From a virus (Duplodnaviria; Caudoviricetes), in the IMG/VR virus record IMGVR_UViG_3300021354_000009, positions 1 through 56,419 of that record: DNA of 56,419 nucleotides. One strand, written 5' to 3'. A model generated the notes under the pieces. The model made no database searches, was not told where the DNA came from, and worked only from the letters and a program-made list of their open reading frames with translations. The translations under genes were made by a program, and so were the position numbers. Positions 134-53,314 of the stretch are shown one piece after another (the first letter of the stretch is position 1; each line of letters begins with the position of its first letter).

Positions 134-314
134 TGAAGCTCTCACCGATATGCTCAAGGATATGGTGCGCCCTGATCTCTTCAACAGAGTTGTCCTCAAA
201 GGGCAACTTAGCGCCCTCAATGTTAACTAGGTAATCTGGCTCAACCAATGGGTCATCATCGACGTTTACAAAACCCTCGATGCGTTTATACCCACTACCT
301 AAGTTAACCTTCAT
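134..314 (-). CDS. Class I SAM-dependent methyltransferase, 5' part (continues across the junction into 56419..56022; 192 aa total)
   Basis: ATG at 314 overlaps the upstream stop (ATGA). Reads MKVNLGSGYKRIEGFVNVD...LPFEDNSVEEIRAHHILEHI, a Methyltransf_11-like motif set, and joins in frame to MKELHRVCKNGA. Confidence 0.9.
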
Positions 315-700
315 AGAGCATCCAAAGCGTCGTGAGTAGTGCAAGCATCAATTGCGGCTTGCTTAGTCAACATCGCTTGGCGTGCTGTCTCTACAGCATT
401 AGCATCATATGAATCAGGGTTACGGGCTTGTTGGTTCACAACTTGTTGGAACTCAAAACCAGCGTTAGCTCTCATGCCACCCTTGCGGTCATCAACAGAG
501 ATCTCGTATGTATCCCAGATGATTTGCACTGGATCAGCGTTGAGGTCATAGCGATGTGCTGTGTACCCTTGACGGCCAGCTTGGATTGACGGGCGAACCT
601 CGACGGCATTACGCCATCCGTTGTTGCCTACGCCTTCTGAGGGAGGTGTATCCCAGACCTGCTTTACTTCGTTTCCGACTACTTGAACATAATGTGTCAT
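311..700 (-). CDS. Hypothetical 129-aa protein, possibly tail fibre assembly/chaperone
   Basis: ATG at 700 with GGAG RBS; lies after the receptor-binding-like genes; C-terminus AAIDACTTHDALDAL resembles tail-assembly chaperone ends. Confidence 0.55.
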   Translation of the reverse strand: MTHYVQVVGNEVKQVWDTPPSEGVGNNGWRNAVEVRPSIQAGRQGYTAHRYDLNADPVQIIWDTYEISVDDRKGGMRANAGFEFQQVVNQQARNPDSYDANAVETARQAMLTKQAAIDACTTHDALDAL

Positions 701-720
701 GTGTGACTCCTTGTAAAAAA

Positions 721-1887
721 TTAAACTGATGCAATTGCCGTTGTGTTGGCAGAAGATCCAGCCGATATTGCTGTCCAACTAGTTAATGTGCCAACTTGTT
801 TTGGTGCTGATAAATTAGTTGTGTTACCTTGCCCCAACTGACCACTACTATTTGGCCCCCAAGTATAAAGAGTGCCAATTGTTGTTAGTGCGCCAGTACT
901 GTAAAGGCCTGCGCTTATTTGCAACCAATTAGTTGCAGAACCAATTTGCTTGGGGGAAGAATAGCTGGTTGTATTTCCTAGCCCCAATTGACCAAATGCT
1001 CCTTGACCCCAAGACCACATAGTGCCATCTGTTTTAATGGCTATTCCATTACTATATCCTGCGTCAATTTTTGACCAAGTGGTTAATGCACCAATTTGTT
1101 TTGGTGAGGAATAATATGTTGTGTTCCCAAGCCCAAGCTGGCCTACACCATTGTTTCCCCAAGCCCACAGAGTGCCGTCGGTTTTAAGTGCCAATGTATT
1201 ACCTAAAAGACTTGAAACTTTAGCCCAAGTTGTTAATGCGCCAATTTGTTTTGGTGAGGAGTAGTTTGTTGTGTTGCCAAGACCTAATACCCCGCCACCA
1301 CCTGAACCCCACGCCCATAATGTTCCATCTGTTTTAATGGCAAAAGTAGATGTGGCGGCGCCAGCACTACCTTGAACAAAAGCCCAATTGGTTAAAGCCC
1401 CAATTTGCACTGGGGAAGAATAGTATGTTGTATTACCTAATCCCAATTGACCACTTTGATTTCTTCCCCAACCCCACAAAGTGCCATTTGTCTTTATTCC
1501 AAAAGCAGTATATTGTCTAAGAGAAATAAAAGACCAATTGGTTAATGAGCCAACTTGTTTTGGGGAAGAATAATTGTTTGTGTTTCCAAGACCAGTACTA
1601 CCAAAACCACTACCACCCCAAGCCCAAAGTGTGCCATCTGTTTTTGTAGCAAGATTAACTGAAGAACCGCAACTAATAAGATTCCATGTAGTAAGCGATC
1701 CAACTTGTTTTGGGGACGAATAACTTGTAATATTTCCAACACCAAGTTGGCCAGAAGCGTTATCACCAATAGTAAATAAATACGGCACTGGCTGGCTAGG
1801 CCAAGTCCCCAACGCCCTTGCATTGGCTACACTGCTAAGACTCCATGAGCCTGAGTATTGAACGCCTGATACTGTTGTTGTTGCCAT
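721..1887 (-). CDS. RCC1-repeat 7-bladed beta-propeller protein (type B, copy 2)
   Basis: Seven repeats of KTDGTLWxWGxNxxGQLGLGNTTxYSSPKQVG. Confidence 0.92.
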   Translation of the reverse strand: MATTTVSGVQYSGSWSLSSVANARALGTWPSQPVPYLFTIGDNASGQLGVGNITSYSSPKQVGSLTTWNLISCGSSVNLATKTDGTLWAWGGSGFGSTGLGNTNNYSSPKQVGSLTNWSFISLRQYTAFGIKTNGTLWGWGRNQSGQLGLGNTTYYSSPVQIGALTNWAFVQGSAGAATSTFAIKTDGTLWAWGSGGGGVLGLGNTTNYSSPKQIGALTTWAKVSSLLGNTLALKTDGTLWAWGNNGVGQLGLGNTTYYSSPKQIGALTTWSKIDAGYSNGIAIKTDGTMWSWGQGAFGQLGLGNTTSYSSPKQIGSATNWLQISAGLYSTGALTTIGTLYTWGPNSSGQLGQGNTTNLSAPKQVGTLTSWTAISAGSSANTTAIASV

Positions 1888-1891
1888 TTGT

Positions 1892-3031
1892 TTATCTCAA
1901 AGCAAAAGATGAATTTAGCATGGCGGCAACGGTAGACCACGTTAAAACCGACCCAACTTGCTTGGGGCTAGAGTAAGCGGTTACATTGCCCAACCCAAGC
2001 TGACCATTGGAGTTATAACCCCACGCCCATAAAGAACCGTCAGTTTTGGTTGCCATAGTAAAACTAGATGCACCTTGCGATGCCGCCACCCACGTAGTCA
2101 ATAAGCCAACTTGCTTAGGCGAAGAATAACTTGTTCTATTGCCAAGTCCTAGCTGTCCACGGTTGTTGTAGCCCCATGACCACAGAGTACCATCAGTTTT
2201 TGTATTGGCGGCACAAGCATATCCAGCATTAACAGTACGCCAAGTGGTAAGAGCGCCAATCTGTTTTGGAGATGAATAATAAGTAGTATTGCCAAGACCA
2301 AGTTGTCCTTGGCTATTGCTACCCCATGACCACATAGTGCCGTCAGTTTTAATGGCAAACGTCATAGGGTCTAAGTATGCTGATGTAGAAATCTTAGACC
2401 ATGTAGTCAATGCTCCGATTTGCTTTGGCGAAGAATATGACGTAGTATTTCCCAAACCTAACTGACCTACGTTACCACTACCCCAAGACCACAATGTGCC
2501 GTCAGTTTTTAAAGCAATAGTTTGATTATAACCAGCGGCAACATTGAGCCATGTAGAAAGTAATCCAACTTGCACAGGACTAGACCGATATGTAGTATTG
2601 CCTTGACCTAACTGACCATTATTATTGCGGCCCCACATCCATAATGTTCCATCAGTTTTAACTGCGCCAGTAAATCCTTCGCCACAAGCTACCTGCGCCC
2701 AAGTAGTTAATGCACCAACTTGTATGGGGCTAGAATAATTTGTAAGATTTCCATTACCCAAGTTGCCATAGCCGTTATATCCCCACATCCACAAGGTTCC
2801 ATTGGGCTTTAAAGCCGCCGCAAATACATTGCCAGCAGAAGCAGAGACGCTTGCCCACTCACTAGTAGCTCCAACTTGTACAGGAGATGAATAGGCGGTA
2901 GTGTTGCCTAATCCCAACTGACCTTGTGCATTGCGGCCCCAGCTATACAAATCATAAAAAGTCGTACTCGTCTGCGTCCCAAGCGGATTAAAGCCGGGCT
3001 TGTTGATGGCCGCTACGTAGCGATTGCTCAC
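1892..3031 (-). CDS. RCC1-repeat 7-bladed beta-propeller protein (type A, copy 2)
   Basis: Seven RCC1 repeats. Likely start is GTG at 3031, overlapping the upstream TGA (GTGA); the N-terminus then aligns with paralogue 5994..7121 (KPGFNPLGTQT). Confidence 0.9.
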   Translation of the reverse strand: MSNRYVAAINKPGFNPLGTQTSTTFYDLYSWGRNAQGQLGLGNTTAYSSPVQVGATSEWASVSASAGNVFAAALKPNGTLWMWGYNGYGNLGNGNLTNYSSPIQVGALTTWAQVACGEGFTGAVKTDGTLWMWGRNNNGQLGQGNTTYRSSPVQVGLLSTWLNVAAGYNQTIALKTDGTLWSWGSGNVGQLGLGNTTSYSSPKQIGALTTWSKISTSAYLDPMTFAIKTDGTMWSWGSNSQGQLGLGNTTYYSSPKQIGALTTWRTVNAGYACAANTKTDGTLWSWGYNNRGQLGLGNRTSYSSPKQVGLLTTWVAASQGASSFTMATKTDGSLWAWGYNSNGQLGLGNVTAYSSPKQVGSVLTWSTVAAMLNSSFALR

Positions 3032-4800
3032 GAAACCATCCTTAGTTCTACTTTGTTCATGTTCAATCTCTCTTTGATTTTGTTGAACGGAGCATCCCAC
3101 TCACCAAACACTTCTTGACGCAACAGCTTCATGGTGTCGTAGTACGGGCACTTATCGCCATCTAAAGCATACAGGTAGTACCCCATCACAGGGATAACCA
3201 CCCAAGTCTCCACACCCATAGCCGCCGCCAAATGGCTCACGGACGTACATGAACTGATGACTAAGTCGCAGGATGCAACAGCGTTTTTAGTGTCTTCCCA
3301 AGTATTCAATGGTACTTGTTTTACCCACGTAGGGCAAGCATCTGCACCCTCATCGCGCTGTAAAGATATGAACTCATAGTCCGTGCCTCGCACTGCATCA
3401 AACAGCATTTGGTATGGGAAGCGTTTGTTATGGTCGTCCTCGAATTTGCTGTTACCTTGCCAACGCAGACCAATGCGTTTCTTGTAACCTTTGATGACTG
3501 CGGGCTTGTCAATATACGCATCCCCACGTAGGTCTGCCATCTCGTAGCCGAGGTAGTACGGAGCCACCATAGCAAAGCACCAGAAGTCGTGGTAGACGCC
3601 GTATTCCGCGCCGTGCTGAATGACAGCAGATACGCCTTCAATCTTATTGAACAAACCCACCAAAGCGCCTGAACAGCACACTACTACCTTGTTACCCCTC
3701 GCAACTAAGTCACGGGCGTAACGCACTTGGTGGATTTGATCGCCAAGGCCGTGATCGCAGTACAGCAGGATCGTGCCTTTTGTCTTGCCGTCCCACTCTG
3801 GGGCTGGGGTGTCTGGGAACTTCTCACCAATGATTCCACAGAAGCGCCCTCTGTTCATCTCTCTATAGCCCTCACCGACCTTGCCCTGTTTGAGCAAGTA
3901 CCAACTGCGGTTGTACGCGGCTCGGTGGTCATTGGGACGCTCGGCATTGAGCTTCTCTGAGAGTCTCCACCCTTCGGTAAAGTCACCCATCTTGCCAGCC
4001 GCGACTTGGAGGTCTAAGTCATCTAACTCAGGCATCGTGCGTGCGTTGTCATTCCAGAACTCTGGTTGGCAGAATTGGTTGTAGTGGTGCTTCAATAAGT
4101 CTTTGGACTTGTCATCGTGCTGTTTAGCCAAGACGGGCTTGACATCGTGCATACCAGCGTAGCCGTGTAGGTTCTCGTCGTCTTCCTTGACCGAACTGCC
4201 GTCGATGTTGCTGAAGTCGTAGGCGTATGGCTCCAGACCCAAGAACTCATGGATGCGGTCTAGTTGACCCTTTGGATCAGCAAGGAGTTCGTCATACACA
4301 ACGAATAGGAAGTTCTCTGGCATGGCTTTGTAGCCCGCTTCCAACGACAGATATGCCGCCTTTAGGTGGTCAGCCAACTGTCCAGAGTACATGAATTTAT
4401 CTAGATCATCAGGCTTTGCCACGCGCACGAACGACGCCATGCAATCAGGCACAGGACGCACGGTAGCGATCACCTTACAGGGACGATTCAGCACTTGGTT
4501 CATCGCACCCATGATCTGGGGGATAGGCCACCCACGGGACTTGTCAATGATGACAGGCTTGTCTGTGTCTTCGTAGAAAGCATCAATACAGCCACGCATT
4601 GTCTGCGCGAGCTTCTTGCGTTCAGGGTCGTTCTCGTTTAACAGGCCAGCCGAGTGCCATGTGTTGGCAAGCCCATCAAGGGCGTGGACAAGGCCAGATG
4701 TCGTAGAGACGTGGGTTGCGGGGTTTTGGTTCAGGATAGCCGCCAAGACGGTAGAGCCTGAACGTGGAATGCCAGAGAGGAAGTGTAGTGTTTTGTTCAT
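3028..4800 (-). CDS. Sulfotransferase + TPR + GT9-like glycosyltransferase fusion
   Basis: N-terminal 5'-PSB loop SGIPRSGSTVL and 3'-PB motif RPVPDCMAS; TPR-like helices (PNDHRAAYNRSWYLLKQG); GT-B/GT9 motifs DHGLGDQIH and DLVISSCTSVSHLAAAMG. Confidence 0.88.
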   Translation of the reverse strand: MNKTLHFLSGIPRSGSTVLAAILNQNPATHVSTTSGLVHALDGLANTWHSAGLLNENDPERKKLAQTMRGCIDAFYEDTDKPVIIDKSRGWPIPQIMGAMNQVLNRPCKVIATVRPVPDCMASFVRVAKPDDLDKFMYSGQLADHLKAAYLSLEAGYKAMPENFLFVVYDELLADPKGQLDRIHEFLGLEPYAYDFSNIDGSSVKEDDENLHGYAGMHDVKPVLAKQHDDKSKDLLKHHYNQFCQPEFWNDNARTMPELDDLDLQVAAGKMGDFTEGWRLSEKLNAERPNDHRAAYNRSWYLLKQGKVGEGYREMNRGRFCGIIGEKFPDTPAPEWDGKTKGTILLYCDHGLGDQIHQVRYARDLVARGNKVVVCCSGALVGLFNKIEGVSAVIQHGAEYGVYHDFWCFAMVAPYYLGYEMADLRGDAYIDKPAVIKGYKKRIGLRWQGNSKFEDDHNKRFPYQMLFDAVRGTDYEFISLQRDEGADACPTWVKQVPLNTWEDTKNAVASCDLVISSCTSVSHLAAAMGVETWVVIPVMGYYLYALDGDKCPYYDTMKLLRQEVFGEWDAPFNKIKERLNMNKVELRMVS

Positions 4801-4814
4801 GGGATTAGTTTATA

Positions 4815-5990
4815 TCAGGTAGAGGCAATTGCTACTACATTATTTAAACTACAAGAAACAGATGACCAAGTTGTTAATGATCCAACCTGTTTAGGGGATG
4901 AATAGTTTGTTGTATTACCTGTACCTAGTTGTCCATAATTGTTTTGACCCCAAGTCCAAAGGGTTCCATCAGTTTTAGTAGAAACGGTAAAGTATCTACC
5001 CGATGCAATAGTTAACCAATTTGTTAATACACCAATTTGTTTTGGAGATGAGTAATTAGTTCTGTTTCCAAGACCTAATTCTCCAATACTATTTATTCCC
5101 CAAGACCAAAGAGTTCCGTCTGTTTTGGTGGCTAATGATGTGTATGGGCCTGCATTTGTAATAAGCCATGTGGTTAAAGCGCCAATTTGTTTTGGTGAAG
5201 AATAATTGGTGCTATTGCCAAGGCCTAATTGGCCACCTGCGCCTTGATAATTGGAATTCCAACCCCAAGACCATATTGTTCCATCGGTCTTAATAGCCAA
5301 GGCATGAAAAAACCCCGCAGTTATTTTTGACCAAGTTGTCAAAGAACCAACTTGTTTTGGAGAAGAATAAGATGTAGTGTTATTAAGACCTAGTTCGCCA
5401 TAATCATTTCTAGCCCATGACCAAAGCGTACCGTCGGTTTTAATAGCGTAAGAACTATATGCACCTGCGGCTGTAGTAAGCCAAGTGGTTAAACTGCCTA
5501 TTTGTTTAGGTGATGAATAATAGGTTATGTTTCCCAAACCTAATTGGCCAAAACCATTACCACCCCAAGCCCATAATGTACCGTCTGTTTTGGTAGTTAA
5601 AACATTGAAATATCCTACAGATATTTTTGACCAATTAGTTAAAGCTCCAACTTGTTTAGGTGACGAATAAGATGTTGTATTACCTAAGCCAAGTCTACCG
5701 CCGGGACCATAACCCCATGCCCACAAAGTACCGTCCGTTTTAATTACAAGAGATGCGCCTATTGATGTACCAGTTGGTAATACTGACCAGCTAGTAAGAG
5801 TGTCAACCTGCTTGGGGGATGAATAATTAGTCGTGTTACCTAATCCAAGCTGACCATTACTGTTTAAACCCCACGCATACAAATGCGGAGCAGGCTGAGT
5901 CGGCCAAGTCCCTGCCGAAATAGCAGAGTTAACCTGTTGCATTGTCCAGATGCCTGAGTATTGAACGCCTGATACTTGTAATGTTGCCAT
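4815..5990 (-). CDS. RCC1-repeat 7-bladed beta-propeller protein (type B, copy 1)
   Basis: Seven RCC1 repeats; N-terminus VSGVQYSG.W...GTWP.QP is shared with 721..1887. Confidence 0.92.
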   Translation of the reverse strand: MATLQVSGVQYSGIWTMQQVNSAISAGTWPTQPAPHLYAWGLNSNGQLGLGNTTNYSSPKQVDTLTSWSVLPTGTSIGASLVIKTDGTLWAWGYGPGGRLGLGNTTSYSSPKQVGALTNWSKISVGYFNVLTTKTDGTLWAWGGNGFGQLGLGNITYYSSPKQIGSLTTWLTTAAGAYSSYAIKTDGTLWSWARNDYGELGLNNTTSYSSPKQVGSLTTWSKITAGFFHALAIKTDGTIWSWGWNSNYQGAGGQLGLGNSTNYSSPKQIGALTTWLITNAGPYTSLATKTDGTLWSWGINSIGELGLGNRTNYSSPKQIGVLTNWLTIASGRYFTVSTKTDGTLWTWGQNNYGQLGTGNTTNYSSPKQVGSLTTWSSVSCSLNNVVAIAST

Positions 5991-5993
5991 GAT

Positions 5994-7121
5994 TTATCCT
6001 TGGGCAATAACATGATACTGGCCACCATCAAAAACACCCCAAGTTGTAGATACTCCCACTTGTTTTGGTGATGAGTAGCTTGTAGTATTTCCAAGACCTA
6101 ACTGTCCTTCTGTGCCACGACCCCAAGCCCAAAGCGTTCCGTCAGTTTTAGATGCAAGTGTAAATTCTTGACCGCCAACAGCAAGATTTAACCAGTTGGT
6201 TAATGAACCCACTTGTTTGGGTGAGGAATAATATGTCAGATTGTTAAGGCCTAACTGTCCTGTTTGATTTTGTCCCCACGCCCAAAAAGTACCGTCAGTT
6301 TTAACAGCTACGGTGTAATACGCACCACCAGAAACTTTTAACCAATTTGTTAATGCGCCAATTTGTTTGGGAGAGCTAAAGTTAGTTCTATTTCCAATCC
6401 CTAGTTGACCAACTGCATTATTTCCCCAAGACCAAATAGTTCCATCGGTTTTAACAGCATATGAATTTACCCTACCAGCAGAAACAGTTGACCAATTAGT
6501 TAAAGCGCCCACTTGTTTAGGAGATGAATAATATGTTGTATTTCCAAGTCCAAGTTCACCGTATGGATTTTGACCCCATGAGAATAATTGACCCGAAGTA
6601 TTGATTGCAACGCAATGCGCTCCTCCAAAAGCAATTTTGCTCCAAGTGGTTAATGATCCAACTTGTTTTGGAGATGAATAAGATGTTGTGTTACCAAGGC
6701 CTAATTGACCAGAACCGCCATATCCCCATGCCCATAACGTACCATCGGTTTTAATAACGTAAATTTGTGGGCCAAATCCTTGGGCAATATACGACCATGT
6801 AGTCAATGAACCGACTTGCTTGGGCGAAGAATAATATGTTGTATTACCAAGACCTAATTGGCCACTGCCATTCGAGCCCCATGCCCATAAAGTACCGTCA
6901 TTACGAATTGCATAAGAAGAATTTGTTGCGCCAACATTTGTCCAATACAAAGAACCAACTTGTTTTGGCGAGGAATAATTTGTTCTATTATTAAGTCCAA
7001 GCGCCCCATCTGCGCCACTACCCCAAGTAAATAGGTTATATGCATAGGAAGACGTCTGCGTCCCAAGCGGATTAAAGCCAGGCTTAATAATACTTCCCAG
7101 ATTTTGTTGGCGTAAGCTCAT
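5994..7121 (-). CDS. RCC1-repeat 7-bladed beta-propeller protein (type A, copy 1)
   Basis: Seven RCC1 repeats; N-terminus KPGFNPLGTQT. Confidence 0.92.
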   Translation of the reverse strand: MSLRQQNLGSIIKPGFNPLGTQTSSYAYNLFTWGSGADGALGLNNRTNYSSPKQVGSLYWTNVGATNSSYAIRNDGTLWAWGSNGSGQLGLGNTTYYSSPKQVGSLTTWSYIAQGFGPQIYVIKTDGTLWAWGYGGSGQLGLGNTTSYSSPKQVGSLTTWSKIAFGGAHCVAINTSGQLFSWGQNPYGELGLGNTTYYSSPKQVGALTNWSTVSAGRVNSYAVKTDGTIWSWGNNAVGQLGIGNRTNFSSPKQIGALTNWLKVSGGAYYTVAVKTDGTFWAWGQNQTGQLGLNNLTYYSSPKQVGSLTNWLNLAVGGQEFTLASKTDGTLWAWGRGTEGQLGLGNTTSYSSPKQVGVSTTWGVFDGGQYHVIAQG

Positions 7122-7135
7122 TGGCTACTCCAAAA

Positions 7136-7510
7136 TTACGATATGACTTCGTATGAGATCGTGTAAGTGATTCCGCTTGCAGTACCCGATGTCACCGTGA
7201 TGGACTTGTCTTCCATCAAATAGATGGCAGTCGTTTTATCCACAGCAATCACTGACGCGCTTGCGGGCACAGCAATAGTGGAGATCACTGGGTAAGCAGT
7301 ACCACCACCTGCCGCTACACTGTTAATTGACACGGTAGCATTTACAGCCGAAGTACCGTTCACGTTAGCGCACACGATCTGGTTGATCTTGTAGACCTGA
7401 CCACTGGATGCGGCGTTAGATAGCAACACGTTAGCAGTTGTATTGGTAGGTGTTAAGTACGTGGTCGTGCCAGACGCTGTGGTCGCCGCAAGAAGATTTG
7501 GATTAGCCAT
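7136..7510 (-). CDS. Small beta-rich virion (tail-associated) protein
   Basis: 124 aa, Ser/Thr/Ala/Val-rich, AGGAG RBS, within the tail operon. Confidence 0.6.
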   Translation of the reverse strand: MANPNLLAATTASGTTTYLTPTNTTANVLLSNAASSGQVYKINQIVCANVNGTSAVNATVSINSVAAGGGTAYPVISTIAVPASASVIAVDKTTAIYLMEDKSITVTSGTASGITYTISYEVIS

Positions 7511-7519: not shown

Positions 7520-8083
7520 TTAAATACTGAAGATAAAGTTGATCATTGTCGCTTTGGCTTGTGTGACGCCAGAAGCCGCGGGTGCAGACGATACCCAACC
7601 AGAACCGTTTGATGTCAACACGTTTCCGTTAGTTCCAGATGACGTCAAACCTGTACCACCGTTTGCGGCAATTAAAGTCCCCGCCAACGTGATAGCCCCA
7701 GTTGAACTGGTACTTGGCGTAAACCCTGTGGTGCCCGCGCTGAATGATGTCACACCACCAGTACTGGCCGCCCAAGTTGGTAAACCGCCAGACAATGTCA
7801 ACACATAGCCATTAGTGCCTACAGCCAACTTGCTTAGAGTATTTGTAGCCGATGCATATAGCAAGTCACCAGTGGTGTAGGTCGTCAGACCCGTACCGCC
7901 TGCGGTCGTTGGCGTTGTCTTCCAAGCGATAACTTGTACAGCGTTCGAATTGTCTTTGTAGAACAACTTACCATCGGTGACGTTGATCGCCAACTCACCA
8001 TTTGCAAGATTTGTGTTTACAGGAACGGAAGCCGCTGTAGTGCTGTAGTACAGCGAAATTGGGGTATAGCCTGATGCGGACAT
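7520..8083 (-). CDS. Tail fibre-like protein
   Basis: N-terminal NGELAINVTDGKLFYKD motif and GGTG fibre repeats. Confidence 0.7.
   Translation of the reverse strand: MSASGYTPISLYYSTTAASVPVNTNLANGELAINVTDGKLFYKDNSNAVQVIAWKTTPTTAGGTGLTTYTTGDLLYASATNTLSKLAVGTNGYVLTLSGGLPTWAASTGGVTSFSAGTTGFTPSTSSTGAITLAGTLIAANGGTGLTSSGTNGNVLTSNGSGWVSSAPAASGVTQAKATMINFIFSI
7698..7710. repeat. Dispersed palindrome CCAGTTSAACTGG
   Basis: Exact match. Confidence 0.85.
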
Positions 8084-10230
8084 TAGAAAGTTCCTCCAGT
8101 AATGCCACCTGTAATTGTCCCATTAACGGCATTACAAGTTATTGATGAGTTTACCAATTCAGGTAGATTTCCGCTAGTAGCAGTTACAAAAGTTAAGTAA
8201 TTTGTTGCACCAGAAGATGCTGACGTAATACCCACATTAGTTGCGTTTGTTGCGGTTCCTGACGTCTCTGCGTTTAAGTTAGCCACTTGAGTTGTGGATG
8301 CAACCGTTAAAGGAGCCGTACCCGTGGCTATTGTCGAAATAAGCCTTGTACCTTGCACCGTCTGAGACGTAATAATTGCAGAGCCAGTGCTTAGTGTGTT
8401 TGTGCTCCAAGTGGTGTTTGCTGGCGCTTGGAAATGGGTGTCCCATGAACCTGCCGCTATTGCATTAGATAAAAGAGTTACATCAACAAATCCACCCGAA
8501 GGTACAGACACAATAAGTGTCCCTGAATTATTGTTGACTGTTATGGCACCACTGCTTTGGTTATTGTTGAATGTGTAATTAACACCATTTGCCAAAGTTG
8601 TTGCATTAGGTAATTGATATGTCTGCCCACCAGAACCAGTAACTACATAATTTGGTACAGATGCAACTGTTAATGTCGTGGTTGTACCAGTTGCGGCAAC
8701 ACTTAAATAACCTTGGCTAAGTGAATTTACAGAAATATTTTGATTTGCATCTTTAACAACAATGCCACTTGCACCGTTGGTTGCATTACCCAAAGCCGTT
8801 AATACACCAGTTCCAGTGGTTGTGGTGCTTGGAGCCACGCCTGCACCGCCCCCAATCATCAAAGCGCTAGCCGTTAAAACCGCGCTTGATGCCCATGTAC
8901 TTGCAGAACTGAAGTAAACAACACCGCCAGAGGTGCCTGCAACGGTCAAAGCAGGGGTTGTAGTTGGTGTTGCTACAGTAATTAAACCGCCAGTAAAACC
9001 AACGCTAGTAACCGTACCTGATGAAGTACTAATGGTTGCCCAAGTTCCATCACCTCGCAAATACGTGGTGGATGATGGTGTTCCTGAAACTGCACCAGAT
9101 AACGCTGTAACGCTAGAAATTAATGTGCCAGATGTTGGCAACGTAACTGCCGTATTTGCAGTTGCCGTAAAAGATTGTGTAAAAGCGCCTGAGTGCGTTA
9201 AGTTACCACCAATTGTGATCGTGCTTGATCCGTTGTTTACCCCAGTGCCACCACTTGCACCGCCTAGAGTACCACCCAAAGTAATCACGCCCGTAGTTGC
9301 AGTCGATGGCGTTAAACCACTTAAAGATGTTTGAAAAGAGGTAACCCCACCCGCAGAACCATTTGATGCAACAGTAATTTGACCTTGAGCATTAACAGTG
9401 ATGTTGGCATTTGTGTAGGAGCCTGCAACCACTGTTGTGTCAGCAATTGAAATAGTGCCTGTCGAGGTGATAGGGCCACCCGTAAGACCAGTTCCAGTTG
9501 CAACAGAAGTAACACCAGTACCCGTGGTAATTGAACCCCACACGCCATTTGCATAGCCTTCAAATGTTCCAGTAGTAGTGTTGTATCTAAGTTGGCCATT
9601 TGTGGCACTACCACGTTGTCCAGTAGTACCACTAGGAATTGTTATTGAAGCGGTGCCTGGCACCACTGGGTTAGACGCAATACCTATAGTGGGCGAACCA
9701 CCTATGCCGTTTCCATTGCTAACACTAATTTGATTAGTAGTACCAACGATTGTGGTAGCTGTAACAGTGTTTCCGTTAACAGTTAATAAACCAACCGCAC
9801 TTGTACTAGAAATGTTTTGTAAAAGTTGGCTTAAACCGATCAAAGGATTTGCAGAAACACCATCACCATTAGAGACGGTCATCCCTGAGCCAACCGTTAT
9901 TGAACGGTTTGTGACTGTGCTAGCGCTATCTTTGACAATAATTCCTGTACTTGCGCTATTCAAACTTGCTGACGCGCCAGTCATGTTGATTCGCAAAGTG
10001 GTGCCTGCGCCACCATCAGTTAAAGATAACCCAGTGCTAGTCGTTAAATAACGCGCTTGGGTCAATCCTGAAGTTGATCCAACAGTCAAAAACGGATAGT
10101 TCAGTGCGCCCGCACCAGAAATAGAGCTAGTAGTGGTTTGTACAGTTACACCGTTTTGAACAATAGGTACAAGCTCAGAACCCGTCAAGGCTGATGCGTT
10201 TGGTAGTTGGGTAATGGTTATATTGGCCAT
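8083..10230 (-). CDS. Tail fibre protein
   Basis: 715 aa, very rich in Thr/Gly/Ser; GQLRYNTTTGTFEGY, GVTSVATGTGLTGGPIT and TYLRGDGTWA fibre motifs. Confidence 0.8.
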   Translation of the reverse strand: MANITITQLPNASALTGSELVPIVQNGVTVQTTTSSISGAGALNYPFLTVGSTSGLTQARYLTTSTGLSLTDGGAGTTLRINMTGASASLNSASTGIIVKDSASTVTNRSITVGSGMTVSNGDGVSANPLIGLSQLLQNISSTSAVGLLTVNGNTVTATTIVGTTNQISVSNGNGIGGSPTIGIASNPVVPGTASITIPSGTTGQRGSATNGQLRYNTTTGTFEGYANGVWGSITTGTGVTSVATGTGLTGGPITSTGTISIADTTVVAGSYTNANITVNAQGQITVASNGSAGGVTSFQTSLSGLTPSTATTGVITLGGTLGGASGGTGVNNGSSTITIGGNLTHSGAFTQSFTATANTAVTLPTSGTLISSVTALSGAVSGTPSSTTYLRGDGTWATISTSSGTVTSVGFTGGLITVATPTTTPALTVAGTSGGVVYFSSASTWASSAVLTASALMIGGGAGVAPSTTTTGTGVLTALGNATNGASGIVVKDANQNISVNSLSQGYLSVAATGTTTTLTVASVPNYVVTGSGGQTYQLPNATTLANGVNYTFNNNQSSGAITVNNNSGTLIVSVPSGGFVDVTLLSNAIAAGSWDTHFQAPANTTWSTNTLSTGSAIITSQTVQGTRLISTIATGTAPLTVASTTQVANLNAETSGTATNATNVGITSASSGATNYLTFVTATSGNLPELVNSSITCNAVNGTITGGITGGTF

Positions 10231-14532: not shown

Positions 14533-15519
14533 TTAGGAAACTAAGTTTTGGTTCACACCAAGAGCACCAGTGCGAGTCGCATTGGGGCCAACAGCGATGC
14601 CAGGGAGCGTCACAGCCATCACCGTGCGGATAATTCCGTTCGATGTAGTTGCAGGCGCGTAGGTTCCGCGAACGTCACCAGTGCCTGTTGTTGCTGTAGC
14701 AGTGTCTGCGGCGACAAACGTACCAGCGTCTTGCGCTAGTGTGTTGTTGCTCTTGACGCTTGCTACATACGCTACGTTAGCAACGCGAACTGGGATACCT
14801 AGGACATCACTTGTACCGATCACAACCGCAGTTGCAGAACCAGAAATCGTTGCACCAGAGATCTGATAGAACGCTTTTAAGCCAGTTACAGCAGTTGCCG
14901 CGGTGACCACAGTGATCAATTCACTCATGGATTGACCGTAGACGTCATAACCAGTAACGGTAAACGCACGAGCAGTTGTTGAAGAATTAACTTTAACAGC
15001 GCGTGGCACGTCTAACTGGATCACAGTTACGCCATCTTGACGAACAACAGACTTGGCTGATGTACCAGCAGTCAAAGTAACTGCTTGATTGGCAGTTGTT
15101 GTTGTTTGCGATAAAGCAATGTTGTTAGTGACTGGAGCTTGAGGAACGACGTCCCAAACATAGACACGACCAAGTGGGCCAATACCCAAGCTCATCGGAG
15201 ATGGATTGTCGTAAGGCTCTAGATCATGGAAAGTTAAAGCTGTTGTGTTAGCAATGTTAAGTGCTTGATTGAGTGTGTAAGTGCCTGTACCACCAGTACC
15301 AGTGCCAAATGCAGTGATATAGGTGCCATCAGTAACACTTGATCCATCAACATACATACCGAGAACAATTGGCGAACCAAAGTTCATCGCAGTTATTGTC
15401 AAAGTTGTTGATGAAACACTACCAGTACCACCAGTTGCGGTAGTAGAGTAGTTGCGAAGTCCCGTACCCATGTACGTTTGTGCAGGGCCTAAGAATAGGT
15501 CGTCGGAAAATTGAGGCAT
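14533..15519 (-). CDS. Capsid decoration / minor structural protein
   Basis: Directly downstream of the major capsid gene; Thr/Ala-rich beta protein; strong RBS. Confidence 0.6.
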   Translation of the reverse strand: MPQFSDDLFLGPAQTYMGTGLRNYSTTATGGTGSVSSTTLTITAMNFGSPIVLGMYVDGSSVTDGTYITAFGTGTGGTGTYTLNQALNIANTTALTFHDLEPYDNPSPMSLGIGPLGRVYVWDVVPQAPVTNNIALSQTTTTANQAVTLTAGTSAKSVVRQDGVTVIQLDVPRAVKVNSSTTARAFTVTGYDVYGQSMSELITVVTAATAVTGLKAFYQISGATISGSATAVVIGTSDVLGIPVRVANVAYVASVKSNNTLAQDAGTFVAADTATATTGTGDVRGTYAPATTSNGIIRTVMAVTLPGIAVGPNATRTGALGVNQNLVS

Positions 15520-15593: not shown

Positions 15594-16508
15594 TTAGACA
15601 CCAGCGGTGCCATAAGCACAACGTGGATCCGTAAAGCCTACGTCGTAACGCTCTGTAGCCTTGTAACGCATGGAGTCGGTTTCAAAATCACCTTCCATGG
15701 TCTTCTCAAGACGACGACGCATCAACAACTTGAAGCCTTCTGGAGCGTCAGTCTGCACCCACCATGCGGTAGATGAAGTCAAACGTGACAGAACTGCGGC
15801 ACCCTCGTCCAACAAGCCAATTGCCTTGATGGGGTTGATGTCGTTGTTTGCGTTGCCTGTACGTAGAACAGATTTCAACAACACTTCGGCTTGGAAGATG
15901 TTGCCTGGCGCCACGACTAATTGACGTGGAACCAAACGGATCTTCTTACCGTTGTTGTCAACAGCTTGACGAATCTGGATCAACATTTGCTCTAGTGACG
16001 TTTGCGACAAATTGGCTGATGTAGACAATTGGTTGCTAAACGTACCGTTCACGATTGGGTGAGCAGTGCTGATCAAAGAAACGCCATCACCGCCTGGGTA
16101 GGCAGAGTTGAACGATGTGTTTAACACGTTAGCTGACAACAACTCTTTGGTTTCCACCAAAGACTGTGCCAAGTGGCGTGCATAAACTTGACCGATACGG
16201 ATATGGTCGCCATCTTCAACAAGCACTTTGGTCAAAGCGAAGGCCAAGCCATACACTTTATACACATAGCGCTTTAAGAAGAGTACGCCACCCTGTTGAT
16301 ACGTAACGGGAGTACCGTCAGGCAACTGGGGTGCGGCACCAAATCCATAAAGGACAGGCTCTTCGTGGTAGTTACGTGGAATGCCGTCTTCTTCGCGGAA
16401 CACTCGGCTCCACTCGTCGGCACGTTGGTCATAGACTCCATCGAAGCATTCGTTGAGGATAGGTTCAACAATACTTCTAAAGTCCGTACTGCGCATTGGT
16501 GCGGCCAT
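15594..16508 (-). CDS. Major capsid protein (Mu gpT-like family)
   Basis: 304 aa; YHEEPVLYGFGAAP, GGDGVSLISTAHP and MEGDFETDSMRYKATERY motifs; position in the head module. Confidence 0.88.
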   Translation of the reverse strand: MAAPMRSTDFRSIVEPILNECFDGVYDQRADEWSRVFREEDGIPRNYHEEPVLYGFGAAPQLPDGTPVTYQQGGVLFLKRYVYKVYGLAFALTKVLVEDGDHIRIGQVYARHLAQSLVETKELLSANVLNTSFNSAYPGGDGVSLISTAHPIVNGTFSNQLSTSANLSQTSLEQMLIQIRQAVDNNGKKIRLVPRQLVVAPGNIFQAEVLLKSVLRTGNANNDINPIKAIGLLDEGAAVLSRLTSSTAWWVQTDAPEGFKLLMRRRLEKTMEGDFETDSMRYKATERYDVGFTDPRCAYGTAGV

Positions 16509-25341: not shown

Positions 25342-26772
25342 CTACGCCCCATATGGGTTCACCTTGTTGCGCTTGTTGAACTCCATAGCATCAATCAAAT
25401 CGTCTTCGTCGTAGTCTTCTCGTGGTGGTGGATCAATCGATATCCAACCTGAGTCACGTAAGTATCTAAGCCCTTGGCTAATACAGTCAACGAACTCGTC
25501 GTGTGCTGTCTCAGGGAACGCGCATATCTGGGACACCATGCCCTCAGCCCAATCCCTGACAAAGCCTTTGCGTATGCCAGACTCAGGCACCCACACTCGG
25601 CCTGCCCTGATGATGTTGGCAACGATGCTTAGTCTCTGTGTCTTGTCAGCGTTGCCAGGGTTGTACCCATACACAGGCAAGTGACCACGTTGCAAGTCTT
25701 GTATAAGACTGATACCCGCGGCCTTGTCTTCTACCAATATCAAGTCCACACGCTTCTTCTCTTTGCCTTCACCATACACCGTCTCATACTCTTCAATCAC
25801 CTTGGGGCGTAGGTCTGGGTACTGAAGCTTGTCTTGCCAACAGTCAATCACCATCACGCACATACCGCCATCCAATGGCTTAAACGCTCCAAGCGTTATG
25901 CACCCAGTAGGGTCGTTCTCTTTGCCATCTTTAAAGCCACAGTCATAGCTCTGGATGATGTACTCGAACTTGGGATAGGGCTTACCGTCTGGCCAGAGCC
26001 TAAACCAATCACGCTTGACGATGCCGAACTCTTCTCCATCTAGAAGCTCTGCGTGGATCTCTTGGCGTCCGAGCCTTGTGCCCTCATAGCTAAGGATCTG
26101 CTTCTGGAAGTTGCTAGATAGGTTCTTGATGTTGCTATACGTACTGGCGCGCGTGATCACCACGTCATCACCCTCACGCCCTACCAGATCCATTACTACG
26201 TCTTTAGGCTTGGGTGTAGTAGACGCAATGATCTTGGTCTTGGTGCCCAGTCGAACTGCGAACATGATCATGTCCCACGCTTCTTGTAGGTAGTCCCAAG
26301 CGGCCAACTCATCAAGCCAAGCGCCATGCCACTGACCACCACGGAAGCGATCAGGCTCCGATGCCGATATGCCTTTGATGAACGATCCGTTGTATAACGT
26401 GATCTCGTGCAAAGTCTTGTTGTAGTCTTTTACTAGCTTCTCAGGGATTATCTTCATCAAGCCTGATTCACCGTCAAAGCACGTACCACGCAAGTCACCA
26501 GACGTGGGGGCTGACACTAACCAACGTGTATTGGGTTCGTTCCATGCCCAAGACGCTAGAGTCTCTGCGGCGGCTCTGGTCTTACCCGCACCACGTCCAC
26601 CCAACAGCAACCACACATCCCACCAATCCCCCGATGGCTCTAGTTGGTGCTTGTGTGCTTGTTCGCTTACCCACTTCAGTTGCCAATTGATGGCCAACTG
26701 ATTCAGTATAGGTCTGCTACGGTACTCTTCTACAAACGTGGGATCGACCAGAAGCTCGTCTAGTACGCTCAT
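25342..26772 (-). CDS. terL: Terminase large subunit
   Basis: Walker A GGRGAGKT, Walker B AWLDE, RNase H-like C-terminus (SYDCG...HDEFVD). Confidence 0.95.
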   Translation of the reverse strand: MSVLDELLVDPTFVEEYRSRPILNQLAINWQLKWVSEQAHKHQLEPSGDWWDVWLLLGGRGAGKTRAAAETLASWAWNEPNTRWLVSAPTSGDLRGTCFDGESGLMKIIPEKLVKDYNKTLHEITLYNGSFIKGISASEPDRFRGGQWHGAWLDELAAWDYLQEAWDMIMFAVRLGTKTKIIASTTPKPKDVVMDLVGREGDDVVITRASTYSNIKNLSSNFQKQILSYEGTRLGRQEIHAELLDGEEFGIVKRDWFRLWPDGKPYPKFEYIIQSYDCGFKDGKENDPTGCITLGAFKPLDGGMCVMVIDCWQDKLQYPDLRPKVIEEYETVYGEGKEKKRVDLILVEDKAAGISLIQDLQRGHLPVYGYNPGNADKTQRLSIVANIIRAGRVWVPESGIRKGFVRDWAEGMVSQICAFPETAHDEFVDCISQGLRYLRDSGWISIDPPPREDYDEDDLIDAMEFNKRNKVNPYGA

Positions 26773-31386: not shown

Positions 31387-31659
31387 TCAATTTTGGTTTA
31401 TGTACTCGATGACGTTCTCAATTGTTTTGTTCAAAGCATCGATTTCGTCCATCTTTGCGATAGCCCATGCACGTCTCTCACCATGCCAACCCATCTTGCT
31501 ACCTTGGTGGCACGACTTACAAAGGGCCACCACCGTGTATTGCCTATGCTGTTTGACGTGGTGTGCATCGCTTGGTCCAGATGCTTCACATACGGAGCAT
31601 GGCATGAGCTTTACTAAGCCTACGTATGCTTTTTCTTTTGCGCTTAGTGTGTTATTCAT
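31387..31659 (-). CDS. HNH-like Zn-binding nuclease (Ref/DUF968-like)
   Basis: CSVC...DAHH...VALCKSCHQG..GWH. Confidence 0.7.
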   Translation of the reverse strand: MNNTLSAKEKAYVGLVKLMPCSVCEASGPSDAHHVKQHRQYTVVALCKSCHQGSKMGWHGERRAWAIAKMDEIDALNKTIENVIEYINQN

Positions 31660-32731
31660 TGCTTCCTACATATTCGTGGCAATAGCAAATTCTGTTTGCA
31701 TGTTTTTCCATAAGCTCTTTGGAATAGAACGTGTTGGTTTTATTCTTGATAGAACGTGCGTATTGTTTTGATCTGTCTTCCATGTTGTGCGTGGTAGCTC
31801 TCCAATTCTTGGATTTGTTTCTGTACTCACCCAACCGTAAGTGACCAGTCTTTGAGAAGTAACGTAACCCGTTCTGGATGTGTAGTTCGCCCATAGCATC
31901 GCTTAATCTCACGCCTAAGCCTAACCCTTGGAAGTCTGGCAATATCACTGTCCTATGGCCTTTCCATGCGTTTGTTAAGGATCCTGATGGAAGAGTGATA
32001 ACTGCGGTAAATCCAACAACCGTTCCTTCCCATGTTGCGATCCAACATCGTGAACTCTTATTGATGTTCCCTGTGAGATAGTGATGGTGGCGAAACATTT
32101 TCCAAGCTTCGATTGAACAAGGAAGTATTTCCAATTGAACTTCTGGCCGAACTGACCCCCTTCCGACTGTCAGTCGGTTTGTTGTTGTGTCGTACACCCA
32201 ATCAGGTTGCAACCATTCAATGATGTCGTAATGACACGACGCAAAGACTATGTTCTTTAACTTTGTGTTATCGACATAGCGCCTGATTGCGTATGCACAA
32301 GACTTTGCTACGTTTCTATCAACCACGCTCGTGAACTCGTCAATGATGGCGTTGTCTTTGAGCCTCATGGCCAAGTCAGCACGGAACTTCTCACCCGTTG
32401 ACAGTACGTGGTATGGCCTGAGCCATGACGGTATCGAGTTAAAGCCAACGGCACTGAGCTTTTCTTGTGCTTGGGTTGCATCTGAAAAGTGTGAGCAAAT
32501 TGCTTTGCTTTCGTCCCAAACGATTTGCTCTTCGCTTCCGAACTTTCCAAGCATCGATGACTTACCACTACCACTTGCTCCAACGATTAACCCAATGCCA
32601 TATTCCTTTGGAAGATCTGGCATGTACGGAACGTTGAACTTTGTTTTGCCCTCAAACTCATAGTCAAAAGATTGTGATATCTCTTTGGTTATGTCGTCTT
32701 GTATTACGCTTGATACCAATGTATTTGTCAT
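31652..32731 (-). CDS. ABC-type ATPase fused to GNAT acetyltransferase
   Basis: Walker A GASGSGKS, signature LSTGE, Walker B IIDEF, H-loop ASCH; GNAT acetyl-CoA motif VILPDFQGLGLG. Confidence 0.88.
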   Translation of the reverse strand: MTNTLVSSVIQDDITKEISQSFDYEFEGKTKFNVPYMPDLPKEYGIGLIVGASGSGKSSMLGKFGSEEQIVWDESKAICSHFSDATQAQEKLSAVGFNSIPSWLRPYHVLSTGEKFRADLAMRLKDNAIIDEFTSVVDRNVAKSCAYAIRRYVDNTKLKNIVFASCHYDIIEWLQPDWVYDTTTNRLTVGRGSVRPEVQLEILPCSIEAWKMFRHHHYLTGNINKSSRCWIATWEGTVVGFTAVITLPSGSLTNAWKGHRTVILPDFQGLGLGVRLSDAMGELHIQNGLRYFSKTGHLRLGEYRNKSKNWRATTHNMEDRSKQYARSIKNKTNTFYSKELMEKHANRICYCHEYVGSNE

Positions 32732-49161: not shown

Positions 49162-49401
49162 TTACACCAAATAATTAATTGACATTGTGCCAAGCAAATG
49201 GTCTGCCCACTCTTGCCAAGTATTAAAACCACGATGATCGGCCACGCCTGAGTTTTGGAAATACCCAACACCAATCAAACCATCCACCCAATCTCTCCAA
49301 CGCTCTTCTGGAACATTGCCAAGTTGTTGTTGGGCGAACAGTTCTTCAGTCAGCTTATTCCACTGATCCCATGTCATGCCTCTTTGATCATATGTAACCA
49401 T
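49162..49401 (-). CDS. Small Trp-rich tail protein
   Basis: 79 aa; MTWDQW...WRDW...FNTWQEWA; follows the nozzle gene. Confidence 0.65.
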   Translation of the reverse strand: MVTYDQRGMTWDQWNKLTEELFAQQQLGNVPEERWRDWVDGLIGVGYFQNSGVADHRGFNTWQEWADHLLGTMSINYLV

Positions 49402-52648: not shown

Positions 52649-52650
52649 GA

Positions 52651-53292
52651 TTAGGAGTCCACGGCTATGGCTGAACGATCACCAACACGGGCGACATCTT
52701 CTGTCTTCAGTGCGGTAATTGCTTCAGTATATTTCTGCTGAAAAATTGCACGCGCATCGTTCTTTAAAAACGGCATAGCTTGCAACAAGGTTCCGTATAG
52801 CATCGCGTTGGGCGCATACTGGGTAAGCCAATTGGTTTGGTTAGTTGAACTGAGAGGCGCTATACGCTCGTAGTACAACACCTCAAAGGTGTACGCTTGA
52901 TCTGGTGTTGGTGCTAGATACCAATGCTCATAGTCGGTGTCTGCATAGAAAAGAGGCGTACCAGTTTGAGTGACATTTGGCCAATAGTTCTTTAGATACT
53001 CAAACTTGCGCAAAAAAACAGGTTGCATGCTAGAGCCATTGTTGATGCTCATAGATACCGTTTTGCGCCAACGGGCGGGTTTGGCCAATGTTGGCTCATT
53101 TGGGGTGACAGTTGAATTGGCTACCGTCAATTGACCTAAAGTCTTGATCTCTTGCGCAATTTCAAATTCACACAAAGTGATAAATGTGGGAATGGCGGCA
53201 ACCACGGCAGGGTCGCTACGCTCAAGGTACTGAAGCACAGTACTCGTCAGTGAGTCGTATGTCATTACCCATGATGGATTTACTGTAGCCAT
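52651..53292 (-). CDS. Second head-tail adaptor protein
   Basis: MTYDSL...IPTFITLCE...LAPTPD...TNWLT..AP.AMLYGTL. Confidence 0.7.
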   Translation of the reverse strand: MATVNPSWVMTYDSLTSTVLQYLERSDPAVVAAIPTFITLCEFEIAQEIKTLGQLTVANSTVTPNEPTLAKPARWRKTVSMSINNGSSMQPVFLRKFEYLKNYWPNVTQTGTPLFYADTDYEHWYLAPTPDQAYTFEVLYYERIAPLSSTNQTNWLTQYAPNAMLYGTLLQAMPFLKNDARAIFQQKYTEAITALKTEDVARVGDRSAIAVDS

Positions 53293-53314
53293 GTGTGCCT
53301 TTTTTGGACTTTAA

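Follow-up and report, generated by a model that had tools for sequence, protein, structure and literature searches.

A phage tail-fibre cassette pairing an APS-kinase-like protein with a sulfotransferase-TPR-glycosyltransferase enzyme: a candidate sulfation system

Sulfation cassettes that bring their own supply of the sulfate donor 3'-phosphoadenosine 5'-phosphosulfate (PAPS) are known from rhizobia, where NodPQ accompanies NodH, and from Xanthomonas, where RaxPQ accompanies RaxST, a Sulfotransfer_3/tyrosylprotein sulfotransferase (TPST)-like enzyme that carries out tyrosine sulfation of RaxX. Here we describe a phage cassette in the virus record IMGVR_UViG_3300021354_000009, the whole of which (56,419 bases; CheckV completeness estimate 100) was the window of our analysis. 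It combines a short kinase resembling adenosine 5'-phosphosulfate (APS) kinases with an enzyme of 590 amino acids (aa) built from sulfotransferase, tetratricopeptide repeat (TPR) and glycosyltransferase (GT) domains, set among genes for RCC1 propellers. The system is real and conserved. According to our proposal, for which we see the chances as evenly balanced, the cassette couples a sulfate-donor enzyme to a bifunctional modifying enzyme that acts on the phage's own fibre-tip proteins, inside the distal-fibre module for host recognition. As with NodPQ-NodH and RaxPQ-RaxST, a sulfotransferase would thus be coupled to a dedicated APS-kinase activity that serves one modification and not assimilation. 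Unlike those systems, this one is phage-encoded, lies in a tail-fibre module and has no ATP sulfurylase; its kinase is shortened to 150 aa and scores below the apsK cut-off, and its sulfotransferase is fused to TPRs and a GT9-like domain.

TPR-containing glycosyltransferases that modify proteins are represented by OGT and SPY (family GT41) and by FlmG of Caulobacter; TibC is a GT9-like protein heptosyltransferase. In the phage enzyme the TPRs adjoin a GT-B domain as they do in OGT/SPY and FlmG. It differs from these proteins and from TibC in having no more than two TPRs, a GT core whose closest counterparts are WaaC and WaaF, and a fused sulfotransferase; we know of no TPR-glycosyltransferase modifier with such a fusion. 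Freeman et al. are said to have found in 2023 that mycobacteriophage virions are glycosylated on capsid and tail-tube proteins by phage-encoded glycosyltransferases. Our proposal likewise has phage enzymes modifying the phage's own structural proteins; to our knowledge, neither sulfation nor a donor-making enzyme has been described for the mycobacteriophage case. Iyer et al. (2010; PMC2938197), in the part of the article that was available, predicted bacterial operons with a sulfotransferase, a PAPS synthetase and 2-oxoglutarate (2OG)-dependent dioxygenases, for which tail-collar or collagen-like proteins were the proposed substrates. Judged by that part, both proposals take fibre-like proteins encoded beside a sulfotransferase and a PAPS maker as substrates, whereas those operons are bacterial and include hydroxylases, and the present cassette belongs to a phage, has RCC1 propellers and shows no dioxygenase among the ORFs (open reading frames) scanned. 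Our literature search found no report of sulfation in a phage fibre module, of a sulfotransferase-TPR-GT fusion, of the short kinase or of a strict sulfotransferase-kinase pairing that spans two cassette types, and nothing relevant on the function of phage-encoded sulfotransferases, on tyrosine sulfation of tail fibres or on RCC1 fibres. The role of sulfotransferases, which are met with again and again in aquatic phage genomes, 'remains unclear' according to the accessible text of a 2023 paper (PMC10580990).

The cassette is encoded on the minus strand in the order RCC1-A, RCC1-B, 590-aa enzyme (3028-4800), RCC1-A', RCC1-B', 129-aa protein, methyltransferase, 150-aa P-loop kinase (55573-56025), 213-aa protein, holin and endolysin. 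A first-pass annotation of the record had already described the co-oriented run from fibre genes through the cassette to lysis genes, which we could confirm; it had placed the system at 134-7121, to which 1-344 and 55573-56419 have to be added (for the record ends, see below). The overlapping stop and start codons it had noted occur at three junctions, namely as ATGA between the 129-aa protein and the methyltransferase and again between the methyltransferase and the kinase, and as GTGA between the 590-aa enzyme and RCC1-A'. These overlaps suggest translational coupling.

The main new result of our analysis is the linkage of kinase and sulfotransferase in related phages. We scanned 52 IMG/VR loci carrying the fused enzyme (61-99% identity) and 80 kinase loci (the best 80 of 537 kinase relatives) with hidden Markov models built from our own alignments. 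Downstream of the fused enzyme, the kinase was present in all 25 loci with at least 5 kb of downstream sequence and in 29 of the 30 with at least 3 kb, the sole miss being a contig that ends 55 nt past the methyltransferase gene. Conversely, all 45 kinase loci with 5.5 kb or more of upstream sequence have a sulfotransferase upstream; with 1 kb as the minimum the figure is 70 of 75, and the remaining five loci are cut off short of where the gene would be expected. The distance between the end of the sulfotransferase and the kinase is no more than 300 nt in 33 of the 45. The co-occurrence of both genes in IMG/VR, which the first-pass annotation had suggested looking at, thus holds in every informative locus seen from either side.

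The partner of the kinase is not always the fused enzyme. The two adjacent standalone sulfotransferases that were scanned with Pfam are Sulfotransfer_3 proteins of 273-287 aa, and across loci such proteins share 24-32% identity with the fused domain (tblastn). In place of the RCC1 genes, the two standalone-type phages scanned carry two or three genes for proteins with fn3 and Lcl_C (lectin-like) domains; of 41 loci with a standalone sulfotransferase, 40 have Lcl_C-type genes nearby. Over 104 loci the type of enzyme follows the type of binding domain: 60 combine the fused enzyme with RCC1 and 40 a standalone sulfotransferase with Lcl_C, the other four being two contigs that end inside the enzyme gene, one locus mis-scored by our script and one with neither. 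A quick tree of the kinases (71 rows, 118 columns), many of whose forks are weakly supported, shows at least nine changes of sulfotransferase architecture, at least four of them forced by well-supported branches. The kinase therefore behaves like a general helper that accompanies whatever type of sulfotransferase the locus has. This strict pairing within a host-recognition module gives both genes a concrete job, a phage-run sulfation pathway, and we regard the donor-plus-writer link between them as well supported and likely to be right.

Relatives outside this group of phages carry the association further. The Ralstonia jumbo phage RSL1 encodes a kinase homologue (45% identity) six genes from ORF232 (Sulfotransfer_2, 3.9e-21), in a setting of glycosyltransferases and nucleotidyltransferases. 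In Rhizobium sp. BK376 and Neorhizobium sp. P12A, a 555-aa protein unites Sulfotransfer_2, the kinase (64% identity) and a CTP_transf_like domain, and in other Alphaproteobacteria (Shumkonia, Reyranella, Acetobacteraceae) the kinase (59-67% identity) is fused to CTP_transf_like. As for the rest of the RSL1 cluster, ORF230-ORF238 comprise three 'HMC glucosyltransferase' genes, two nucleotidyltransferases, the Sulfotransfer_2 gene, a thymidylate-synthase-family gene and the kinase homologue, and may represent a cluster for the hypermodification of DNA or glycans, sulfation included. A DNA-hypermodification role of the kinase in the present record was considered and dropped, there being no Thymidylat_synt match in the record.

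Several findings have to be set against our reading. The linkage counts do not represent independent events, since the phages compared are relatives of one another and some of the loci are overlapping segments taken from a single contig. Two contigs of metagenome-assembled genomes (MAGs), L142 and L144, carry the fused enzyme and show no kinase in the available 10 kb and 4 kb downstream, respectively. Two of the three isolated-phage records tested that have kinase homologues, those of Xylella phage Salvo (45% identity) and Ralstonia phage RsoM2USA (60%), gave no match to the sulfotransferase families searched (PF13469, PF00685, PF06990 and PF03567, of which PF06990 matched nowhere, controls included); in RsoM2USA the kinase has a 5'-nucleotidase and an RNA ligase as neighbours, and in Salvo it is fused to an NMN (nicotinamide mononucleotide)-adenylyltransferase-like domain. 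Finally, the cyanophages S-SRM01 and S-SKS1 possess sulfotransferases and lack a kinase homologue.

The T4-like cyanophage S-SRM01 is of interest in its own right. Directly after its long-tail-fibre gene lies a 13-kb block (222328-235158) with three RCC1 genes, a homologue of the TPR-GT part, a 2OG-Fe(II) oxygenase, a Sulfotransfer_3 protein, a beta-1,4-glycosyltransferase and a sugar epimerase, which looks like a larger version of the same theme. The published S-SRM01 paper makes no mention of a sulfotransferase, RCC1 or TPR. The oxygenase is a feature that this block has in common with the operons in the accessible part of Iyer et al.

Could the kinase simply be an ordinary viral cysC that boosts cysteine synthesis in the host, its proximity to a sulfotransferase being incidental? 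Phage cysC has been interpreted in this way: the available portion of PMC10914622 counts 62 viral cysC genes under assimilatory sulfate reduction and reports them as transcribed in lakes, and some sources name homologues of our kinase 'adenylylsulfate kinase'. Unlike the genes as treated in that portion, the present one is strictly tied to a sulfotransferase, a consumer of PAPS, and a fusion with a sulfotransferase exists. Moreover, it is a late gene, ATGA-coupled within a fibre/lysis block. The first-pass annotation had seen no ATP sulfurylase, and our family search of the record found none either, nor any PAPS_reduct (CysH/CysD) or CTP_transf_like family member. Taken together, the strict linkage, the two sulfotransferase architectures, RSL1, the Rhizobium fusion and a record without cysH, cysD or ATP sulfurylase bear out the earlier suggestion that the kinase serves the sulfotransferase, and a role in assimilation appears highly improbable to us.

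The kinase itself is a short, divergent APS-kinase-like protein. Pfam APS_kinase (PF01583) matches it with an E-value of 4.3e-15 (56.5 bits; gathering cut-off 21.1), and its best sequence matches in Pfam, NCBIfam and PDB are all APS kinases, including the 17 best in PDB. With its structure model (predicted local distance difference test, pLDDT, 93.9), Foldseek listed 30 rows to rank 50 at TMq values of 0.70-0.81, all but one of them APS kinases or enzymes carrying that domain; the exception, in the last row but two, is the ATP sulfurylase of P. chrysogenum. The stretch NKDLGFSxxDRxEQxRR aligns with NKNLGFSxxDRxENxRR of human PAPSS1, and D32, R35, F44, R49 and R55 do not vary among 28 kinases, the identities of which range down to 42%. 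Present and conserved are the motifs GLPGSGKTT, NADxxR, DLGFSxxDRxEQxRR and FEDTN..F.PPE. Relatives abound in metagenomes, where we counted at least 8000 (all 8000 scored candidates passed E 0.001).

We take the corresponding APS-kinase motifs to be DGDxxR, LGFSxxDRxENxRR and the lid KGLYK...FTGI, with the residue roles usually attached to them, and measured against these the protein departs from the family in ways that count against an assignment as APS kinase. Its DGD motif reads NAD, the first Asp being an invariant Asn; the Asn of the APS-site motif is Gln; and the lid is shortened, its first half missing. In addition, the Pfam match spans only profile positions 5-91 of 152, the score for NCBIfam apsK (TIGR00455) is 55 bits at a cut-off of 138.7, and five other NCBIfam models of adenylyl-sulfate kinases likewise place the protein far below their cut-offs. 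Many homologues are fused to the NMN-adenylyltransferase-like domain, which could point to nucleotide metabolism, and one source calls a homologue 'nicotinamide riboside kinase'. Together with Salvo and RsoM2USA, which have no recognisable sulfotransferase, these features would suit a kinase that acts on some other nucleotide-like substrate (for instance a nucleoside, in the manner of salvage enzymes that combine a kinase with NMN adenylyltransferase, or a sugar for the GT donor) and leaves the sulfotransferase to draw on host PAPS. The best sequence matches and the fold matches run counter to this idea, all of them to APS kinases or, among the folds listed to rank 50, to proteins of the sulfate-activation pathway. 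So do the 45 of 45 loci with an adjacent sulfotransferase, 40 of which are without a GT, the sulfotransferase included in the Rhizobium fusion, and the link in RSL1 to a sulfotransferase of a different family. We therefore hold a non-APS substrate to be quite unlikely and regard the protein as a probable PAPS maker.

Several fusions of the kinase deserve mention. A nucleotidyltransferase domain of roughly 120 aa with an HxGH motif is often fused to this kinase subfamily; its nearest relatives are NMN adenylyltransferases, all matches being below cut-off. Examples are L037:11295-12125 and L045:3337-4167, L004:5992-6738 of Salvo, and the proteins P0427 and P0488. Such fusions are found in some of the phages studied here, in Salvo-like phages, in Alphaproteobacteria and, within the three-domain protein, in Rhizobium. 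The fused domain may be a non-canonical ATP sulfurylase, and the fusion hence an unrecognised compact PAPS synthase. P0427 had no match at E<=1e-20 in any of 401 genomes sampled from one phylum, a sample that contained no positive genome and thus carries no weight. In one relative the kinase (L040:6331-6948) is fused to a predicted membrane domain, DUF2061 (E 4.2e-18), and other homologues carry DUF4118.

For the 590-aa enzyme, the first-pass annotation had proposed a sulfotransferase-TPR-GT9 arrangement. Pfam recognizes only its N-terminal part, as Sulfotransfer_3 (PF13469; 4.1e-15, 57.1 bits, gathering cut-off 27), so that the remainder of the label is borne out by fold and not by Pfam. The AlphaFold2 model, computed from an alignment of 46 sequences, has a mean pLDDT of 93.8; the chains ranking top in Foldseek were aligned to it with VIA-align, which also supplied the Z scores. 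Residues 1-258 (4027-4800) resemble tyrosylprotein sulfotransferases with Z 18.5-19.4 (TPST1 19.4, root-mean-square deviation (rmsd) 3.4, 238 aligned residues), about 3 Z units ahead of the next sulfotransferases, namely CurM (16.2), an olefin-synthase sulfotransferase (16.1) and heparan 3-O-sulfotransferases (about 14.5). A family profile searched against PDB gave the same ranking (TPST1 1.3e-9; CurM/olefin-synthase sulfotransferase 3.1e-8). The loop PRSGST, presumably the PAPS-binding 5'-phosphosulfate-binding (5'-PSB) loop, aligns with PRSGTT of TPST2, and R115 and S123, which we take to form the Arg...Ser motif of the 3'-phosphate-binding (3'-PB) site, are invariant among seven diverse relatives.

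The middle part (residues 259-324; 3829-4026) is modelled as four helices that form two TPR motifs linking the catalytic domains; they score best with AspH, whose TPR aligns over 66 residues at Z 11.5 and rmsd 1.6, and a comparison of the family profile with consensus TPR proteins gave E 9.3e-20 for positions 261-311. The GT-B domain (residues 342-583; 3052-3777) has a GT9-like fold: in VIA, residues 326-589 score best with WaaC (16.3), WaaF (15.8), a Veillonella GT9 protein (15.2) and TibC (15.2), and Foldseek lists TibC (2.7e-5), WaaF (3.5e-5) and SPY (8.2e-5). D354 in the GLGD motif, retained in at least 90% of the 46 sequences, would be the counterpart of what we assume to be the N-terminal GD acid, Asp13 of WaaC. 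ADP-heptose as the donor of this domain is a guess based on the model, and genes for ADP-heptose donor synthesis were not found in the record. Relatives of the enzyme number 28,657 among 1.84 billion representatives; many are full-length at 29-61% identity, with 1198 full-length ones among the candidates scored.

Two observations tell against reading these domains as established family members. The position of the catalytic Glu of TPST2, presumably E99, is occupied by T34 in the phmmer alignment, and this Thr is invariant in seven relatives; for this reason the enzyme was not filed as a TPST. Pfam found neither TPR nor GT9 in it (E<=0.01), and among relatives TPR_16 appears in only 6 of 46 and Glyco_transf_9 in 3 of 46 (best E 0.0012). 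Given the invariant Thr and the missing Pfam GT9 match, the modelled enzyme is TPST-like and GT9-like by fold and a member of neither family.

As an aside, the C-terminal 320 residues (TPRs and GT9-like domain) also occur as three to six tandem copies in proteins of 1300-3100 aa, namely P0247, P0254, P0258 and about 100 others; P0247, from an Oscillatoriales cyanobacterium, is named only 'tetratricopeptide repeat protein'.

The second-best sulfotransferase matches raise the question of whether the product is a small molecule or secondary metabolite, made or decorated by these enzymes in the manner of the activating sulfation by CurM, and not a macromolecule. The Z scores of CurM and the olefin-synthase enzyme speak for it, and such sulfotransferases have been linked to metabolite clusters (Iyer et al. 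2010, PMC2938197, in its accessible part). The record, however, holds no biosynthetic genes, the context is one of fibre genes, and the enzyme has TPRs and a GT9-like domain, so that we give this explanation very little credence.

As to how the cassette would work, the kinase would first phosphorylate host-made APS to PAPS, a step we consider quite likely in view of its family, fold and linkage. The sulfotransferase domain would then use the PAPS and the GT9-like domain a nucleotide sugar, the two TPRs holding both catalytic domains together. The substrates would be the phage's own fibre-tip proteins, i.e. the hypervariable RCC1 propellers, modified in the cytoplasm before assembly; this last step we put at slightly less than an even chance. 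Modification might tune adsorption or protect the receptor-binding surfaces. In sister phages the same logic would run from fn3-Lcl_C lectin-like proteins via the standalone sulfotransferase to the kinase. The donor-plus-writer pathway envisaged by the first-pass annotation, which was to glycosylate, sulfate and methylate tail or propeller proteins or else the host surface, stands as regards the domain calls and the kinase-sulfotransferase link and falls as regards the methyltransferase as a core member.

The supposed substrates are four seven-blade propellers, RCC1-A (5994-7121), RCC1-B (4815-5990), RCC1-A' (1892-3031) and RCC1-B' (721-1887). Each has seven RCC1 stretches in Pfam (PF00415/PF25390; E 1.8e-63 to 3.9e-77), with RCC1 E-values of 8.8e-68 for RCC1-A (WD40_RLD 1.5e-86), 4.1e-67 for RCC1-B, 3.9e-77 for RCC1-A' and 1.8e-63 for RCC1-B'. 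RCC1-A' begins with a GTG that overlaps the stop of the enzyme gene; this start was placed from the VSFRY N-termini of relatives and from the sequence. The second pair resembles the first at its 5' ends: a 33-nt stretch of RCC1-A' is 97% identical to the 5' end of RCC1-A, and a 46-nt stretch of RCC1-B' 85% identical to that of RCC1-B. The propellers diverge fast, being overall 50-66% identical between phages whose enzymes are 77-98% identical (56-64% for RCC1-A orthologues). Their N-termini are conserved: KPGFNPL marks the A type, SGxWT..Q..GTWP the B type, and the same motifs head the otherwise unrelated fn3-Lcl_C proteins of sister phages (e.g. L069:6122-8736 and L116:7138-8749); in some relatives both motifs occur on one protein. 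Judged from these sequences, the motifs look like exchangeable docking adaptors, and we infer that RCC1 and fn3-Lcl_C proteins are swappable receptor-binding modules docked by a conserved adaptor. RCC1-A would then probably be a receptor-binding module.

We favour fibre-tip proteins as targets for several reasons: the cytoplasmic enzyme is expressed late, in translational coupling with a propeller gene, and has TPRs; its sulfotransferase domain comes closest to enzymes that sulfate proteins; and its architecture changes with the family of the binding domain. On the other side of the balance, the choice of tail or propeller proteins is pure inference, and the GT domain is as close to lipopolysaccharide (LPS) enzymes as to the protein heptosyltransferase TibC (Z within about 1). 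A complex prediction for the enzyme with RCC1-A scored 0.00 against a mark of 0.32; controls were not run, and the result weighs neither way on binding.

The same donor-writer pair might instead modify the LPS core or another glycan precursor of the host at the cytoplasmic face, thereby masking the receptor of the propellers or lectins, with superinfection exclusion as a consequence, or keeping progeny off debris. WaaC acts on cytoplasmic precursors, and WaaC and WaaF, both LPS heptosyltransferases, head the GT matches. The modelled enzyme has no signal peptide or membrane segment, as would be expected if its acceptors were cytoplasmic precursors, and the co-variation of enzyme type and binding-domain type is what one would expect if both address one host glycan. 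Against the host envelope stand the closeness of the sulfotransferase to protein tyrosine sulfotransferases, by about 3 Z units, and the TPRs, which usually bind proteins. Since the genes are late, embedded and coupled among structural genes just before lysis, there would also be little time for remodelling the host surface. On balance we consider the host envelope an unlikely target.

Extending the fibre-tip proposal beyond this record, phages would build sulfated and probably glycosylated receptor-binding fibre tips with PAPS from their own minimal APS kinase, and many viral 'cysC' genes now scored under sulfur assimilation would be donor genes for virion modification; in this general form the idea is tentative and, to our minds, rather doubtful. 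If true, it would add a new way of modifying virions or receptors, with effects on host range, and the tally of viral 'sulfur AMGs' (auxiliary metabolic genes) in ecosystem studies would need correction. The short form of APS kinase, and perhaps a new sulfate-activating domain, would then merit biochemical study.

Two smaller genes separate the last propeller from the kinase. The gene of the 129-aa protein (311-700) comes after the last propeller gene in all fused-type relatives with a contig long enough to show it. Pfam, PHROG and NCBIfam gave no match; a lead came from the ESM Atlas, in which a cluster at 0.90 carries Phage_tail_APC, a fibre assembly chaperone domain, on 30% of its members. 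A Phage_tail_APC protein is encoded after the enzyme gene in contig L142, and its comparison with the 129-aa protein was not significant (E 0.20). We regard the latter as a probable chaperone for the fibre or an accessory protein.

The gene for the class I S-adenosylmethionine (SAM)-dependent methyltransferase is divided between the ends of the record. Its 5' part (3-314), starting with an ATG at 314 that overlaps the stop of the 129-aa gene, matches Methyltransf_11 (3.4e-5; 24.8 bits, cut-off 21.2) and continues over the record end; its 3' part (56022-56419) is a 5'-open ORF in frame with 3-344. The orthologue of locus L022 (193 aa, 83% identical) also matches Methyltransf_11 (24.3 bits), and its Atlas neighbours are type-11 methyltransferases. 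Of 32 kinase-bearing relatives, 22 have a methyltransferase, in one of two types, and 10 have none; it is therefore an optional accessory and not part of the core.

The first-pass annotation had laid out the gene order on a circle. In favour of this, an exact 126-nt repeat occupies both ends of the record (8-133 = 56294-56419), and the reading frame of the methyltransferase is unbroken across the join that the repeat makes. Bases 1-7, on the other hand, are not part of the repeat and differ from what precedes its 3' copy, and IMG/VR classes the record as linear, probably because the repeat starts at base 8 and not at base 1.

The minus strand carries nearly all genes of the record. PHROG identified a large terminase (25342-26772), a major head protein (15594-16508), tail-fibre-like proteins at 14533-15519 and 7520-8083, and holin, endolysin and further virion proteins within 49401-54377. 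Upstream of the cassette, all on the minus strand, are a 715-aa fibre-region protein (8083-10230), an ORF with a weak PHROG match whose homologues (36-65% identity) also precede the cassette in related loci; the 187-aa protein at 7520-8083, whose N-terminus (residues 14-49) resembles the distal subunit of the long tail fibre (phrog_1699, E 5.1e-5); and a 124-aa protein (7136-7510) directly before the variable cassette. The latter has no family match in Pfam, PHROG or NCBIfam, and its position is kept in both cassette types. Downstream, between kinase and holin, the 213-aa protein (54508-55149) gave sub-threshold matches only and belongs to no family; many relatives, whichever their cassette type, have kept it (24-95% identity). 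Holin (53922-54377, minus strand; PHROG 1e-13) and endolysin (53315-53767, minus strand; PHROG 4.4e-26) mark the end of the cassette.

The nearest terminases are those of an uncultured spring phage (73%) and of Caulobacter phages (about 41%). In a scan of MAG contigs the fused enzyme was found on 11 contigs only, with a mixed taxonomy from Saccharibacteria to Woesearchaeota; we take these for mis-binned phage contigs, and they therefore give no host. The whole stretch was found in one lake-water metagenome run, which may be where it came from, and small shares of it in 23 other runs, no RNA run being among them. No tRNA genes were found in the record. In the early/replication region, a 359-aa protein (31652-32731) ends in a C-terminal GNAT acetyltransferase domain (Acetyltransf_1, 3.9e-5). 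The gene of a 1379-aa protein (45020-49159), for which PHROG gave no match, contains internal tandem repeats of 30 nt and 15 nt at 46142-46216.

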